Origin: Eledone cirrhosa
Lineage: Eukaryota
DNA: 64,000 nucleotides
Assembly (NCBI GenBank): GCA_964016885.1
Contig: OZ024742.1
Span: 84,754,001-84,818,000 of the forward strand
Direction of reading: 5' to 3'
Positions within the stretch are counted from its first letter, which is position 1. Every line of letters starts with the position of its first letter. A program made the position numbers and the translations under genes. The notes beneath the pieces are model-generated. The model made no database searches and had not been told where the DNA came from. It saw only the letters and a list, made by a program, of their open reading frames with translations. Positions 4,287 to 61,177 of this stretch are shown piece by piece.

Positions 4287-4975
4287 AGAATTAGTATATT
4301 TACCAACATATGCGTACAGATGTACACTAATGCTAGCAAATACCCCATTACAGAAACTAATTAGTTGGAGTGAAAATTTTAGTAAGTAAGTTAATTTTTA
4401 ATTTTTAAAATTTTCTTATTTTACGTCTTTCATATAATTGTTCTGCATCCCCCTGCATAGAACCAACTAGGTACTATGACATAACTTATATATTTGCTAG
4501 CATTAGTGTACATCTGTACGCATATGTTGGTAAATATACTAATTCTCTATATTTATCTCCAAATTATTTATTTGTTGAGCAAACTTACCAAATCCACTGC
4601 TAATTCATCGTAGTGGTAGTAGGCTCTTGTCATAATACCACCCCACTCCTACTGACTAGCCTCAGTGTCACGTTGATTGATTCTTTAGAATCTGCCACTT
4701 GACCAGATACAGTGAACTTTTTCAGTGCTATGGAATTCAGTCCCCGCTAGCTGTTCCATCCACCGAATTATTATTTTTATATGAGTTCCTAGTGTCCGCG
4801 CATTGCCTGGGGACTTAGCTGAGAATACACTCCCTGATGACGTAATGAATTCTCGATAGTTACATTGCGTAACTATATTTATCCCATTACAGAAACTAAC
4901 TAGTTGGATTGAAAACTTTAGTAAGTAAGTAAATTTTTAATTTTTAAAATTTTCTTATTTTACGTCTTTCATATA
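4287..4975 (+). mobile_element. ORF-less hammerhead-bearing element with 5' inversion and terminal redundancy, between (TA)n tracts (Penelope-derived or retrozyme-like)
   Basis: Perfect 56-bp inverted repeat 4287-4342/4491-4546; direct repeat of about 92 bp at 4344-4436/4883-4975; hammerhead core at 4834-4905; (TA)n on both sides. Confidence 0.7.
4828..4911 (+). ncRNA. type I hammerhead ribozyme motif
   Basis: CACUCC-CUGAUGA-C-GUAAUG...CAUUAC-A-GAAA-CUAACUAG-UU-GGAUUG. The upstream duplicate (4353-4372) has palindromic ACUAAUUAGU and GGAGUG, which pairs perfectly with CACUCC. Confidence 0.75.
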
Positions 4976-6908
4976 TATATATATATATATATATATATAT
5001 GTGTGTGTGTGTGTGTGTGTGTGTGTTTGTATGTGTGTGTGTGGATTTGTGTGCGCGTTTATTCGTGTGTGTGATTCAAGCCCGGGTTCAATCGGGGTAA
5101 CCACAGTAAGTAAGATACTCAATAGAGTGTAAAAATCAAGTTTAATATAGAAATGGCCTCTACAGGACTAGAGTTGTTTCATTCAAAAGAAATCTTGTTC
5201 ACACCTTGAATTTACTCGGCTAATGTTTGGCCAGATGACCTTCCTCTTTTTAGAGAAATCACCTGATAACACAGGAGAATTTACTACTACGGTATAATGT
5301 TCCCTATCTCATCCAGAATAAGATACTTTGGAAAATATTGAACGAACACCTGTGCTATAGCTAGGCGCACTTACGACTTGTATATACATTGTGCAACTCG
5401 ATGTGCACCTTCCCGTATTCCCAGAAACCTATCGAAATTTTTTATCGGTTTCTGTTCTTCATGGTTGCTGAATCTGATAGAAAATTGCAACGATATCACA
5501 CTCTAAATTTAATCTTGCATATAACCTTAAATGTCAGGGTATTCCTGGTATCTAATAAAAACGTACTCCAGCCATGCATCTGCTTGAACCTGATTCCAGT
5601 TTCGATTTCATTTCGTATATTATTGCATATGTGTTAAGGAAAGTATTTAAGGTGATGTATATTTATACATATATATCGAGGAACTATACATTTTTCCAGT
5701 TAAGGCAGGAATTAGACAGTTTAAGCAAATTCAATGACAATCTAAACAAATATTTGAATATTTCTCATGGAAGAGTATGTTAGAATGCTTAATTTAGAAT
5801 TAAATTTATTTTGAATTATTTGTTATAATGTTCAACATATTTAATTAAAGTAAGTCTTTTTCTTATTTCTGATATGTTTCCTTCGATTCAAAAATACTTT
5901 CTGAAATAGCTTGAAGAATAACATTTTTTGGAAGAAATAATCTTTCTATAAGTTATTTAAATTATTGATTTCTAACGTTGAGACAAGATTATATATTTCT
6001 CGAGAGAATCTACCTCAATATTTCACTGATGTTTTATGTTATCGACTTTGAAATTATGTGAAGTCACGTGGAACATGGTAGTGTTTGTGAAGACAATCTT
6101 TCAGATACAATGATACACACATTATTTCAATGACATACACTTGCAATTCTAAATGTTCACTTATTACCCATTCTTTTCTCTAGAACGTTCATTACATGTT
6201 TTAAGCACCGCTTTTTGTCATTTGGCTTTGTTTATTGTTGATGTGCTACATTCACACTCCAAACTGAATACTTGAATATTTTATAGGCTCAATTCTGAAG
6301 CGCCCTGTCACGTTACTGTGTGTAAACTCTTGCTGTTTTATGATAAATAATTCATAGTTTGTTGAATATATCGTCACTTTCGTATTGAATAACTTTCTTC
6401 CTTCTGATGTGCGGGTACACTCTTTTCGCATGTTCTACATTGACTCACTTGCATACATTCTTTGTAAGATTAATTATTCATCGGAGACCATCTAACATCA
6501 ACAGGTTACTATTTAGTGATCATGTACAAATTCTGTTTCATGTAAAATATATTAGGTGTAATATAAACATATTTCAATTAAATTCTATGTGTGCTATTAC
6601 GACGCAGGGTAAGAATAATATATACAAGCACACATACATACAGATGCATAAAAATACACATCCAAACAAACACAAACATAGGCACACACAGAGATACACA
6701 TACATAGACAGACACATACACACACACACGCGCGCACACACATACACACACACATGTATATATATATATAATGAAAACATTATACATCTCGTATGTATTT
6801 TGTCAGAAGGGGACATGTCTTGGTTTATGTTACACATAAAACTTTGCATTTTAGAAATATATATAATAAAATAAATAGAGATGATATAAAGAATATATCT
6901 TTCGTTTA

Positions 6909-7062
6909 TCTTCTTCTTCTTCTTCTTCTTCTTCTTCTTCTTCTTCTTCTTCTTCTTCTTCTTCTTCTTCTTATTATTATTATTATTATTATTATTATTA
7001 TTATTATTATTATTATTATTAGTATTATTATTATTATTATTATTATTATTATTGTTGTTATT
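6909..7062. repeat. compound (CTT)n-(TAT)n microsatellite at the 3' end of an R4-like element
   Basis: Direct reading of the sequence. Confidence 0.97.
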
Positions 7063-59484: not shown

Positions 59485-59546
59485 AACACCTGATGAGTTC
59501 GTTTAAGTCTTACAACATTATGATCGGACGAAATATGTATAGTATT
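59485..59546 (+). ncRNA. type I hammerhead ribozyme motif
   Basis: AACAC-CUGAUGA-GUUCG...CGGAC-GAAA-UAUGUA-UA-GUAUU; stem I has one mismatch. Confidence 0.6.
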
Positions 59547-60796
59547 TTCGCGGAATATAAATTCTAAAGTAAATTTCCCATCCGGCCTTCTGTTGTTGTT
59601 TTAATGTTGTGTTATATAATTCGATGGTGGAACATCAATTCCATTCATGGTAGAATTGGAAATATATCATAGGCTGCGTTATCCTAAGCCAATTCGATCT
59701 CAAAAGCAGCGGAGTAATATGTTGATAGACAGGTATATTGAAGAGGTGAAAGATATATGTGACCATGTATCTAAAGTAATGATGTAAAAGAAAAATCAGT
59801 ATAAATTGGAATTGGAAAATTCAAATTGTCAATTTATGTAATGATAAGTCTGTAGATGTAGTTAATTTGAAATATTCTTTTTTATTGATTCGATGTTCAT
59901 GAAAGTTGTATATACTTTTGCTTTTGCAATATATTAAATATTAACATTGTTAATGTGTGTTTATATATGATATAGGTAATATTTCATGAGCTAATATAAT
60001 TTGGATCATTACTACCCCAGCCTATACGTAATGAACTCATAAGAAAATATGAACACTAATAATTGGCAAAACAGATTATATGCGAATACTACAATGTCTT
60101 TTATTAAGCTGTATGCTACATACACATAAGTATGAAATAGACCACATATCAACAAATATATCACTCTATGGCACAATTTGTGTGTTTTTATCAGTGTGCA
60201 TATATGTATGTGTGTGTATGCGTGTGTACTGCAGTGTTTATCGGAGCATTTATAAAATTAGCAATGTGTACTCCTTTTAAAAGAAATATTACTGATTCAT
60301 GTGTAATATAAAACATATCACACGTAAGATGCGAAAAAACATAGATTACCTCAGTGGCAACAACACCAATTCTCCATAAATATAGAAGTTATTTACCCCA
60401 TTGCATACACCGTATTTTCAAATAACTATTACTATTGACAATTTGTTGATTTCTAATTGCTAAATTCCGCCAAGCCAAATCCTGACTACAAATCTGATAA
60501 TGTTTATTGTGAGACCTCCTCCCCCCTCTCTCTCTCTCCTTCCCTCCATTCCCCCATATCTCTCTTAAACACACAAAGTGAATTCACTCATGGGGTTACC
60601 TTTCTGCACCTTCACTAAAAGGTTGAACAGGACTACTTCCCTAGCAACATATATATGGTAACTTATATATATGTATATATATATATATGTATATATACAT
60701 ATATATATGTATGTATATATATATATGTATATATATATATACATATATATATATATATATATATATATATATATATATATATATATATATATATAT

Positions 60797-61177
60797 ATAA
60801 ATTAATAAAAACAATTTATAAAAACAAAGAACAAGTTGGTTATATTAAAAACTTCATCATTTTACGATCGTTTCTAGGATATATATGTGTGTTGGTATGT
60901 ATATCATATAGATCTATGTAAAAATATTACAAACTATCAGGAAATATACATACCTTCACATATATATGCTCTCTTCAGAAATGATGATCATTTCTGAAGA
61001 CAGCATATATATGTGAAGGTATGTATATTTTCTCTGATAGTTTGTAATATTTTTACATAGATCTATATGATATACATACCAACACACATATATATCCTAG
61101 AAACGATCGTAAAATGATGAATTCTTTAATATAAGGAACTTGTTCTTTGTTTTTATACATTGTTTTTATTAATTTAT
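60797..61177. repeat. near-perfect palindrome of about 381 bp made of two head-to-head hammerhead-bearing arms, next to (TA)n
   Basis: Centre near 60986; plus-strand hammerhead 60987-61118, minus-strand hammerhead 60854-60987. Confidence 0.93.
60987..61118 (+). ncRNA. type I hammerhead ribozyme motif with a stem II insert of about 100 nt (mirror copy on the minus strand, 60854-60987)
   Basis: AUCAUUU-CUGAAGA-CAGCAUAUAUAUGUG...CACAUAUAUAUCCUA-GAAA-CGAUCG-UA-AAAUGAU. Confidence 0.82.

Follow-up and report, generated by a model that had tools for sequence, protein, structure and literature searches.

Hammerhead-bearing insertions without open reading frames in the genome of Eledone cirrhosa, likely 3' ends of Penelope-like element RNAs

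The closest described relatives of the sequences reported here are the termini of Hydra-clade Penelope-like elements (PLEs), which carry a type I hammerhead near the 3' end, a palindromic stem III of AC...GT type, frequently an unpaired base in stem II, (TA)n targets and 5'-inverted copies (Craig et al., 2021, PMC8557442, Files S1, S2, S7). The listing includes a family of Octopus bimaculoides, and (TA)n is the insertion target of nearly all Hydra families. In the same study, Naiad PLEs have an N-terminal endonuclease (EN), a reverse transcriptase (RT) and no canonical hammerhead, many of them inserting in (TA)n, and the hammerheads of the spike-moss PLE-X1 provide a precedent for about 50 nt between core halves, although these are from a plant, rDNA-targeted and flagged as non-canonical. 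The minimal PLE hammerheads of Cervera and de la Pena (2014, PMC4209133), in the available part of that paper, form many heterogeneous families per genome, mostly as single motifs from truncated PLEs, with some opposite-strand pairs 100–700 bp apart; their stem III is palindromic, their helix II has 6–8 bp, and a dimer mode was proposed for them. Rotifer Penelope insertions show an inverted pseudo-LTR (pLTR) followed by pLTR-spacer-pLTR, and the inverted junction contains palindromes; pLTRs acting in cis are enough for integration in trans, and non-coding sequence between pLTRs is captured in trans (Arkhipova et al., 2013, PMC3846280). It has also been reported that RT starts at two internal sites, that both strands are primed and that uncut RNA is used (PMC11167929). 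Finally, animal non-LTR retrozymes are ORF-less, low-GC type I units whose definition requires two or more complete hammerheads in a tandem array and whose marks include expression as linear and circular monomers; there are also dispersed monomers, and the units were proposed to be non-autonomous, pLTR-derived and PLE-mobilised (PMC7229834; preprint 10.64898/2026.07.22.740005).

Hammerhead motifs in the window

The window is a stretch of 64,000 nt of E. cirrhosa (contig OZ024742.1, positions 84,754,001 to 84,818,000). A strict type I descriptor (intact core, stem I of at least 4/5 pairs, stem II of at least 4/6, palindromic stem III) gave 6 matches in it, versus a mean of 0.15 and a maximum of 2 in 40 local dinucleotide shuffles, and a seventh, 45107+, which fails otherwise, when G15.1 was allowed. 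A scored scan tolerating one core change gave 12 matches with a score of at least 6, a threshold reached in 0 of 12 shuffles. One of them, 62347-, was discarded as low-complexity with a G12U change although it scored 8.0, which leaves 11 usable matches, all above every shuffle. The top score of the reversed window, in which hairpins and microsatellites are kept, was 5.6 versus 17.4 in the real one. Eight permuted-core decoys gave 5 matches at this threshold in total, two of these being real motifs found again. Also dropped were 61861+, without stem II, and 40603+, a 3' half without a core upstream. The hammerheads are real as type I folds, in which stems I, II and III close a CUGANGA/GAAA/UH core that is open at stem I, and the stretch holds about ten unrelated families of these predicted self-cutting motifs.

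An earlier sequence-only reading had listed seven good sites and proposed a comparison with shuffled sequence. All seven are present as type I folds (C3 at 4834+, 36355+, 45107+, 57969-, 59490+, 60994+ and 60978-), and the excess in the strict count bears out its expectation. Its five degenerate sites divided: 46993+ and 49136+ are significant in the scored scan, whereas 55508+ is not by itself (1.2 expected per window; 84% identity to 46993+ over 63 nt), nor are 30828+, with A6G and an unpaired stem I, and 35838+, with two changes in the core, neither of which gave a match there. Further motifs, absent from that list, were found at 49006-, 56712- and 47917+, with 3' halves at 4353+ and 54865-. 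The search for hammerhead families of Infernal type, likewise proposed, came back empty: none of the 111 Rfam matches in the whole window at E ≤ 5 was a hammerhead, and two 300-nt stretches gave none at E ≤ 10. Two of the seven good sites, 36355 and 59490, pass the rule that no mispair stands beside the core (PMC3088659); Hydra-clade motifs themselves often have U.U at this place (PMC8557442, File S2).

Anatomy of the insertions

The motifs belong to 14 insertion events, grouped in ten families, with the following elements (E) and hammerheads (H):

4288–4342, minus: inverted 5' piece of E1, 55/55 identical to the reverse complement of 4491–4545; outer end on (TA)17
4341–4436, plus: upstream terminal repeat of E1, 91/96 identical to 4880–4975; hammerhead 3' half; predicted cut after 4366
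4437–4975, plus: E1 unit, 539 nt, ORF-less, ending in (TA)n; fold more stable than shuffles (z -4.85)
4827–4912, plus: H1 in E1 (C3 4834); intact core, 51-nt stem II arm, 10-nt stem III, predicted cut after 4905
30828–30914, plus: H2, family C, degenerate; A6G, stem I unpaired, 54-nt arm, perfect 8-nt stem III, AATAAA at +8
35835–35872, plus: H3 (C3 35838), degenerate and short; two core changes; 415 nt 3' of an endonuclease remnant
36348–36473, plus: H4 (C3 36355); intact core, 85-nt arm, AATAAA at +10; TA tract 200 nt 3' of the cut
44512–45483, both strands: E2; inverted piece 44512–44705 (reverse complement of 45191–45384), repeat 44704–44834 (equal to 45353–45483)
44835–45483: E2 unit, 649 nt, ORF-less, ending in (TA)17
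45100–45182, plus: H5 in E2 (C3 45107); G15.1 variant, 48-nt arm, 10-nt palindromic stem III, predicted cut after 45175
46886–47046, both strands: family B insertion; inverted piece 46886–46926 and forward piece with short H6 (C3 46993, G12U); TA at both ends
47910–48007, plus: H15, degenerate; G8A, 52-nt arm, AATAAA at +15
48923–49380, both strands: E3, family A fold-back; arms 48923–49218, forward arm continuing to TA at 49380; contains H7 (49006-) and H8 (49136+), with U4C and a 20-nt stem II
54805–54865, minus: family A stump; begins at G12, ends at the proximal 3' site, TA on both sides
55475–55666, plus: family B copy with degenerate short H9 (C3 55508)
56480–56773, minus: family A copy, 70% identity to E3; U4C hammerhead H10 (C3 56712)
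57877–57976, minus: H11, family C (C3 57969); intact core, 6-bp stem I, 62-nt arm, perfect stem III, AATAAA at +7; TA tract 125 nt 3' of the cut
59483–59548, plus: H12 (C3 59490); intact core, weak 33-nt arm; no TA tract within 350 nt downstream
60797–61300, both strands: E4 fold-back; arms 60797–61177, 95% identical, centre 60987; forward arm continuing to (TC)n(TA)n; its two arms carry H13 (60978-) and H14 (60994+), with 97/99-nt stem II arms

Across families, the motifs are type I folds whose stem III is palindromic yet differs in its letters from family to family, with two changed pairs between H2 and H11. A stem III of AC...GT palindromic type beside an unpaired stem II base is also what the Hydra-clade table shows (PMC8557442, File S2); four of the stem III motifs of the window are absent from that supplement. 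In seven of the ten families stem II is an arm of 33–99 nt, compared with a maximum of about 26 nt among the 26 animal PLE rows in print; variants of Lunse et al. (2017) may be exceptions. This long arm, not found in print, is the one feature departing from published motifs, and the sequence-only reading had given it no stress. The helix II of 6–8 bp in PMC4209133 is matched by family A, family B and H3 and not by the families with long arms; neither U4C, seen in family A, nor G15.1, seen in H5, appears among the variants given in the available part of that paper. H2 and H11 have an inner arm in common, which is their most conserved piece. No significant stability was seen for the arm of H4 (z -1.5) or of H12 (z +0.3). 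The half cores of Naiad were considered as possible long-armed hammerheads, without support: 2 of 2 flagged cephalopod consensi close no stem I by eye.

In 4 of the 10 families AATAAA starts at most 15 nt from the cut (background 2%, p = 3e-5, for a motif chosen post hoc), in line with the downstream AATAAA that had been pointed out before. As a negative control, a pattern of core, stem III and AATAAA was run on metagenomes, and both stems were present in 0 of 119 among the matches listed; viral contigs contained no relative of P0001 and no family B pattern. Most copies have changes in the core or adjacent to it, and most of the present ribozyme copies are probably dead.

An inverted piece was present in 5 of the 14 events, at the 5' side and with head-to-head junctions. 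Two of them have a hammerhead in both arms and are true fold-backs, so that this term, earlier applied to the whole set, was too general for the remainder. In all five, the arms end at differing element positions, 99–162 nt apart, a spacing larger than the 30–40-nt tail in print. Relative to the cut, the 3' ends of the forward and inverted arms lie at +308/+209 in E2, +206/+44 in E3, +189/+66 in E4 and +23/+128 in family B; E1 would add +70/+179, provided that the repeat-unit junction was part of the template. The stump at 54.8 kb represents an independent end at the proximal site of E3.

Direct repeats were found in 2 of the 14 events, E1 and E2, which have a repeat-unit-repeat layout without ORF and span 1.18 and 1.20 units. 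The longest stop-to-stop frames of the two units are 83 aa and 79 aa, respectively, and Pfam searches of their three sense frames gave nothing of note. The non-coding sequence upstream of the hammerhead extends over 390 nt for H1 and 270 nt for H5. The fold of the E2 unit (z -1.1) is no stronger than that of shuffles. Within E1, pairing between the upstream half and the downstream core is feasible (-9.1 kcal/mol for the stem I duplex, -5.1 kcal/mol for stem III), and a circular fold showed no pairing across the repeat-unit junction. A tandem template for E1 has one spacing match behind it, expected at about 12% by chance, and differing ages of its repeats (5/96 versus 0/55 changes, p = 0.16) were rejected. 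No insertion contains two complete same-strand hammerheads, and no tandem array with a period near the E1 or E2 unit length is present in the window. E1 and E2 are probably non-autonomous units of 539 and 649 nt with terminal repeats, as their layout suggests. The other 12 events are indistinguishable from the 5'-truncated ends of coding PLEs because they kept too little upstream sequence; the description of the elements as non-autonomous, made from the first inspection, thus fits the anatomy of two events out of 14.

The 3' ends lie in TA tracts, mostly 30–310 nt beyond the cut site. A tract of at least 5 TA units within 350 nt was found 3' of the predicted cut in 11 of 13 events and 5' of it in 5 of 13, counting two non-significant sites and leaving out 47917. 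The background is 0.18 for the whole window, 0.28 outside LINE/Helitron blocks and 0.41 within 44–62 kb, where 7 of 9 events have such a tract (p = 0.03); the location by (TA)n noticed before is thus upheld. The inverted arm of E2 ends on 260 nt of other sequence and not on TA. TATA or ATAT occurs at 3 of 9 internal end sites (background 12%, not significant), and pairing to TA was not retained as a priming rule.

Origin of the insertions

The window contains remnants that resemble three types of PLE endonuclease:

25059–25580, plus: frameshifted PLE thumb/linker/EN remnant, Hydra-like, with a CxCx5C linker, recognised by eye against the text and supplement of PMC8557442
35181–35420, plus: GIY-YIG endonuclease remnant of a PLE with one stop, Nematis-like (clade by eye)
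49481–49630, minus: PLE endonuclease fragment, Neptune-like, by eye against the Neptune1_Ap row of the PMC8557442 supplement

Remnants had been announced at 24.5, 35.2 and 49.5 kb. That at 35.2 kb is confirmed (Pfam GIY-YIG E 0.007; E 1e-9 to an 833-aa RT+GIY-YIG protein; tblastn E 1e-24) and is the only convincing match of 155 Nematis-like protein queries. The fragment at 49.5 kb is recognised by eye only, with blank protein and profile searches. Nothing was found at 24.5 kb; for the nearby remnant at 25.06–25.58 kb, protein and Pfam searches were blank, and no hammerhead was found behind it. Among 21 read-through frames from six motif-adjacent regions and from 24.4–25.7 kb, Pfam found no PLE family, and the upstream frames of six motifs other than H3 were blank. 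With Nematis-like proteins as queries, no coding PLE could be tied to an intact hammerhead in the window, and the sole EN-linked motif is H3, itself not significant.

We consider it likely that these ORF-less insertions of about ten unrelated families are 3' ends (pLTRs) of PLE RNAs, copied into TA tracts by PLE RT/GIY-YIG proteins, two of them likely being complete non-autonomous units. The link to PLEs, TA targeting and inverted integration, all proposed by the sequence-only reading, are supported, though they are published behaviour of PLE ends (PMC8557442; PMC3846280; and the available part of PMC4209133). A protein of Hydra, Neptune or Nematis type would nick (TA)n, and reverse transcription would be primed at internal sites downstream of the ribozyme. 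The inverted arm would come from a second priming event, on the other target strand or by self-priming. The template RNA would be uncut or re-ligated, because whole ribozymes were copied. For E1 and E2, an ORF-less template of 539 or 649 nt, either circular or arranged head to tail, may have been copied over about 1.2 units. Ribozyme cleavage would take place in dimers, through stem III, and in fold-backs the 137–181-bp duplex would mask the ribozymes. The layout resembles that of rotifer Penelope, with a tail of 31 bp there versus 99–162 nt here, the ribozyme here in the spacer, and target-site duplications unreadable inside (TA)n (PMC3846280).

We find it unlikely that most or all families represent non-coding, retrozyme-like elements in their own right, whose transcripts would cut themselves, become circular and be mobilised in trans by PLE proteins. 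Ten unrelated families without an ORF beside any intact motif, the non-coding stretches upstream of H1 and H5, the strongly structured E1 unit, unit sizes within the 51–972 bp range of the preprint (10.64898/2026.07.22.740005) and the half/core pairing of E1, through which two predicted cuts could free a 539-nt monomer, all favour it. However, two complete same-strand hammerheads, the working definition of that preprint, occur in no insertion, and 8 of the 9 dimers tested there did not cut. Also, 12 of the 14 events consist of one truncated piece each, as 5'-truncated PLEs would leave, 3' UTRs several hundred nt long are present in PLEs (Naiad consensi), and H3 follows an EN remnant. Unlike retrozymes, the present elements have at most 1.2 units and inverted heads of PLE type.

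SINE-like elements moved by the LINEs of this genome, with a ribozyme trimming the transcript as in schistosome SM-alpha, are a much less probable source. LINE remnants do occupy 1–23 kb, AATAAA follows the cut in four families, and the H11 arm contains a 10-mer which we take, by eye, to be B-box-like; but the LINE copies at 7–18 kb adjoin (TTA)n, not (TA)n, poly(A) tails are absent, no tRNA was found, and the inverted/direct repeat layout is that of PLEs. The weakest proposal, that the motifs are by-products of hairpin- or TA-rich repeat DNA (fold-back or MITE-like) matching the consensus by chance, could draw on the absence of Rfam hammerheads even on 300-nt stretches, the low-complexity false match scoring 8.0, the TA-rich E4 arm and the 5 of 7 good sites failing the pairing rule, but it is largely refuted, and hardly credible, in view of the reversed-sequence peak (5.6 versus 17.4), the descriptor count (6 versus 0.15), the stem III palindromes with changing letters, including the two changed pairs of H2/H11, and the 0 of 119 listed pattern-only matches with both stems.

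Significance for Penelope-like elements

Hammerheads in PLE ends, TA targeting, inversions and retrozymes as PLE derivatives are already published. Beyond the reading of the insertions as PLE 3' ends, we put forward, tentatively and as a less than even prospect, that animal PLE type I hammerheads with a 33–99-nt stem II arm are a large uncounted class, invisible to Rfam and to short-spacer descriptors. Many would be dispersed monomeric non-autonomous PLE parasites of 0.5–0.65 kb, the missing intermediate from pLTR to tandem retrozyme; the arm would be a selected module, for example a putative binding site of a PLE protein, and downstream of the cut there would be two fixed RT start sites, 100–160 nt apart.

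The paired ends support, at the genomic level and outside Poseidon, the view that RT starts at two internal sites. Also, E1 is a ready construct for asking whether PLE hammerheads cut and circularise unit-length RNA. Should the long-armed form prove general, the hammerheads of animal genomes would be undercounted (Rfam saw no motif here), and claims of PLE groups without hammerheads would need a re-test with long spacers.

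Hammerhead motifs in the window and their controls

A type I descriptor, with an intact core, stem I at 4/5 or better, stem II at 4/6 or better, a near-palindromic stem III and up to 160 nt between the core halves, gave 6 matches in the whole window (4834+, 36355+, 57969-, 59490+, 60978- and 60994+). In 40 local dinucleotide shuffles, the mean was 0.15 and the maximum 2 matches per shuffle. The seventh of the sites first considered good by eye, 45107+, was added once G15.1 was allowed, so all seven were recovered. With one core change and a tighter stem II, 4 matches were obtained versus 0.6 in 15 shuffles. 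A scored scan detected 12 matches at score ≥6 and 0 in 12 shuffles; one of these, 62347-, was discarded as low-complexity. Motif frequency exceeded that of shuffled sequence in these searches. The reversed window, which retains hairpins and microsatellites, reached a top score of 5.6, and 8 permuted-core decoys gave 5 matches at score ≥6 in total, 2 of them being real motifs.

Beyond the strict set, the scan contributed 56712-, 46993+, 49136+ and 47917+. The sites that the sequence-only reading had called degenerate fared unequally: 46993+ and 49136+ scored ≥6, whereas 30828+ and 35838+ were undetected by the scan of the window and 55508+ alone was without significance. Alignments contributed 49006- and hammerhead 3′ halves at 4353+ and 54865-. 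None of the 111 Rfam matches in the window at E ≤ 5 was a hammerhead, nor did two separate 300-nt stretches give one. Among the metagenome matches listed for the core, stem III and AATAAA pattern, 0/119 had both stems; one that failed the long-arm test (L050, ~3501–3577, minus strand) seemingly presents, by eye, a short minimal hammerhead.

Families, ribozyme design and flanks

The 15 motifs, complete or degraded, together with the two halves represent 14 insertion events in 10 families:

49006-, 49136+ (both in insertion E3, 48923–49380), 54.8 kb and 56712-: family A, U4C in all three full copies
46993+ and 55508+: family B
30828+ and 57969-: family C
60978- and 60994+ (insertion E4, 60797–61300): one further family
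4834+ (insertion E1, 4288–4975), 35838+, 36355+, 45107+ (insertion E2, 44512–45483), 47917+ and 59490+: six singletons

The short palindromic stem III proposed as a common design was confirmed, as a 6–10-nt palindrome or near-palindrome, with self-pairing of -2 to -18 kcal/mol in intact motifs. The stem II domain measured 13–20 nt in A, B and 35838+, and 33–99 nt in the other seven families, where its predicted fold is an interrupted rod. Compared with shuffles, these arms were stable in 4834+ (z = -4.8), 45107+ (-3.0), 57969- (-3.2) and the E4 pair (-6.5/-5.8), and not significantly so in 36355+ (only -1.5) and 59490+ (+0.3). Comparison of 30828+ with 57969- shows a conserved inner arm; in the outer arm and in stem III the letters differ and pairing is retained. 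A 10-mer inside the 57969- arm (57931–57945, minus strand), degenerate in 30828+, resembles a Pol III B-box; ARAGORN found no tRNA. The hammerhead fold of intact motifs lies no more than 1–3 kcal/mol from the unconstrained minimum. The rule used in PMC3088659 requires all pairs flanking the core; they are all present in only 2/7 good sites. Most copies are probably inactive.

The reported (TA)n location was supported by the flanks: a TA tract lies within 350 nt downstream in 11/13 events and upstream in 5/13, for a regional background of 0.18–0.41, and in the TA-richest part of the window 7/9 events have a downstream tract (p = 0.03). AATAAA, said to occur often downstream, begins 5–15 nt past the cut in 4/10 families (background 2%). 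TA pairing at internal ends is not established, because TATA/ATAT occurs at only 3/9 of them (background 12%). Long pyrimidine-rich tracts (30150–30740 and 36200–36320) lie 5′ of 30828+ and 36355+.

The window is repeat-rich, with microsatellites, LINE remnants at 1–23 kb and a Helitron at 31.3–35.3 kb. LINE copies at 1–3470 and 19931–23399 form an inverted pair (86–90% identical, with an endonuclease domain), with an older relative at 63.1–63.8 kb; partial tandem copies at 6990–18350 are 95% identical across 2.9 kb, and each lies between (TTA)n tracts. A SINE-like repeat of about 10 copies (23677, 29299–29890, 47104–47784, 51696, 55693, 58822–59251) is in several cases nested in or adjoining hammerhead insertions. 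An additional TA-embedded family has three copies and a relative (45512–45693, 31030–31215, 49752–49891, 49660–49750); its arms are inverted, and its 3′ end takes either of two positions ~80 nt from each other. In two of the copies the start point is shared and lies just 5′ of GAAA; a 5-bp stem and then UC come next, which resembles a hammerhead 3′ half with monomeric stem III. The 5′ half of the core is absent. A loop-less 170-nt fold-back without hammerhead (48736–48905) has arms 95% identical and TA-rich ends. At 55395–55445, 70 nt upstream of 55508+, a 16-nt stretch (one change), together with an 8-mer 5′ of it, is similar by eye to a motif close to the 3′ terminus of Octopus Naiad consensi; by eye, that motif forms a three-way junction and not a hammerhead. 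Along with the likeness of a SINE, a by-eye motif match to an Octopus Naiad end suggests that the host may be a cephalopod.

Insertion anatomy and proposed mechanism

An inverted 5′ piece occurs in 5/14 events, and E3 and E4 are true fold-backs with a hammerhead in both arms (duplexes of 137 and 181 bp); the fold-back description is too general for the whole set. E1 and E2 share one layout: an inverted piece, then a repeat, the unit, the repeat again and TA. Their units measure 539 and 649 nt and their repeats 96 and 131 nt. Neither unit has a frame >83 aa, in agreement with the ORF-less design first described. In all five inverted events, the two arms end at different element positions, relative to the cut +308/+209 (E2), +206/+44 (E3), +189/+66 (E4) and +23/+128 (B). 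For E1, the ends are +70/+179 only if the repeat-unit junction was in the template; otherwise the second end would lie 5′ of the ribozyme and break the pattern. For E1, this favours an ORF-less template that was circular or joined head-to-tail, from one observation with a chance probability of ~12%.

The E2 inverted arm ends at the 5′ base of a predicted 250-nt rod (45196–45446, 3′ of 45107+), 12–16 nt past the cut site; the E1 inverted arm also spans a hairpin (4489–4538). Between the TA tract and the E2 inverted arm lie 260 nt (44252–44511), possibly a second template, with a 7-bp inverted pair at ~44345–44375.

From this anatomy and published work, we propose that (TA)n would be nicked by a protein of a Penelope-like element (PLE), that reverse transcription would begin at internal sites 3′ of the ribozyme, and that a second priming event would produce the head-to-head inversion. 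Because the copies hold whole ribozymes, the template would be uncut or re-ligated RNA, as for an anole PLE in vitro (PMC11167929). The short stem III indicates that cleavage would occur in dimer form. In E1, computed pairing joins the upstream half to the downstream core; the predicted cut after 4366, together with that after 4905, would give a 539-nt monomer.

Coding partners and relation to known systems

Three PLE remnants were considered:

35181–35420: GIY-YIG remnant (Pfam E = 0.007; tblastn E = 1e-24)
25059–25580: by eye, thumb motifs and CxCx5C linker as given for Hydra
49481–49630: by eye, resembles the Neptune1_Ap row

Relatives of the first include an 833-aa protein with reverse transcriptase and GIY-YIG; Nematis-like by eye, it ends 415 nt before degenerate 35838+. 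Penelope remnants had been reported at 24.5, 35.2 and 49.5 kb; that at 35.2 kb was retrieved by Pfam and tblastn, and 24.5 kb itself yielded none. The remnant at 49.5 kb and the one at 25059–25580 were seen by eye only, protein and Pfam searches being blank. With 155 Nematis-like protein queries, all of that clade, no other convincing PLE match was found in the window, and Pfam recognised no PLE family in the 21 read-through frames submitted to it. A Helitron Rep/PIF1 helicase remnant (31270–35320, minus strand; Pfam E = 5e-60 and 2e-14) abuts the PLE endonuclease remnant on the opposite strand.

PMC4209133 describes minimal hammerheads of heterogeneous sequence that occur singly or paired on opposite strands, and PMC8557442 describes TA targeting and inverted copies of PLEs. 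Capture between pseudo-LTRs (pLTRs) is described in PMC3846280, which shows the E1/E2 repeat layout. Retrozymes as PLE-mobilised, pLTR-derived units were already proposed (PMC7229834; preprint 10.64898/2026.07.22.740005). The system works in the manner of both PLE ends and retrozyme monomers; its elements are not the tandem arrays by which retrozymes are defined. The stem II domain of 33–99 nt in 7/10 families contrasts with at most ~26 nt in the 26 animal rows of the hammerhead table of PMC8557442, where two spike-moss rows have ~50 nt. In the literature searched, mostly outside subscription journals, we found no animal PLE hammerhead described with a stem II arm of 33–99 nt. The motifs in the window are real hammerhead motifs inside PLE-type insertions; the system is already known, and its new part is the long stem II arm and the two ORF-less units.
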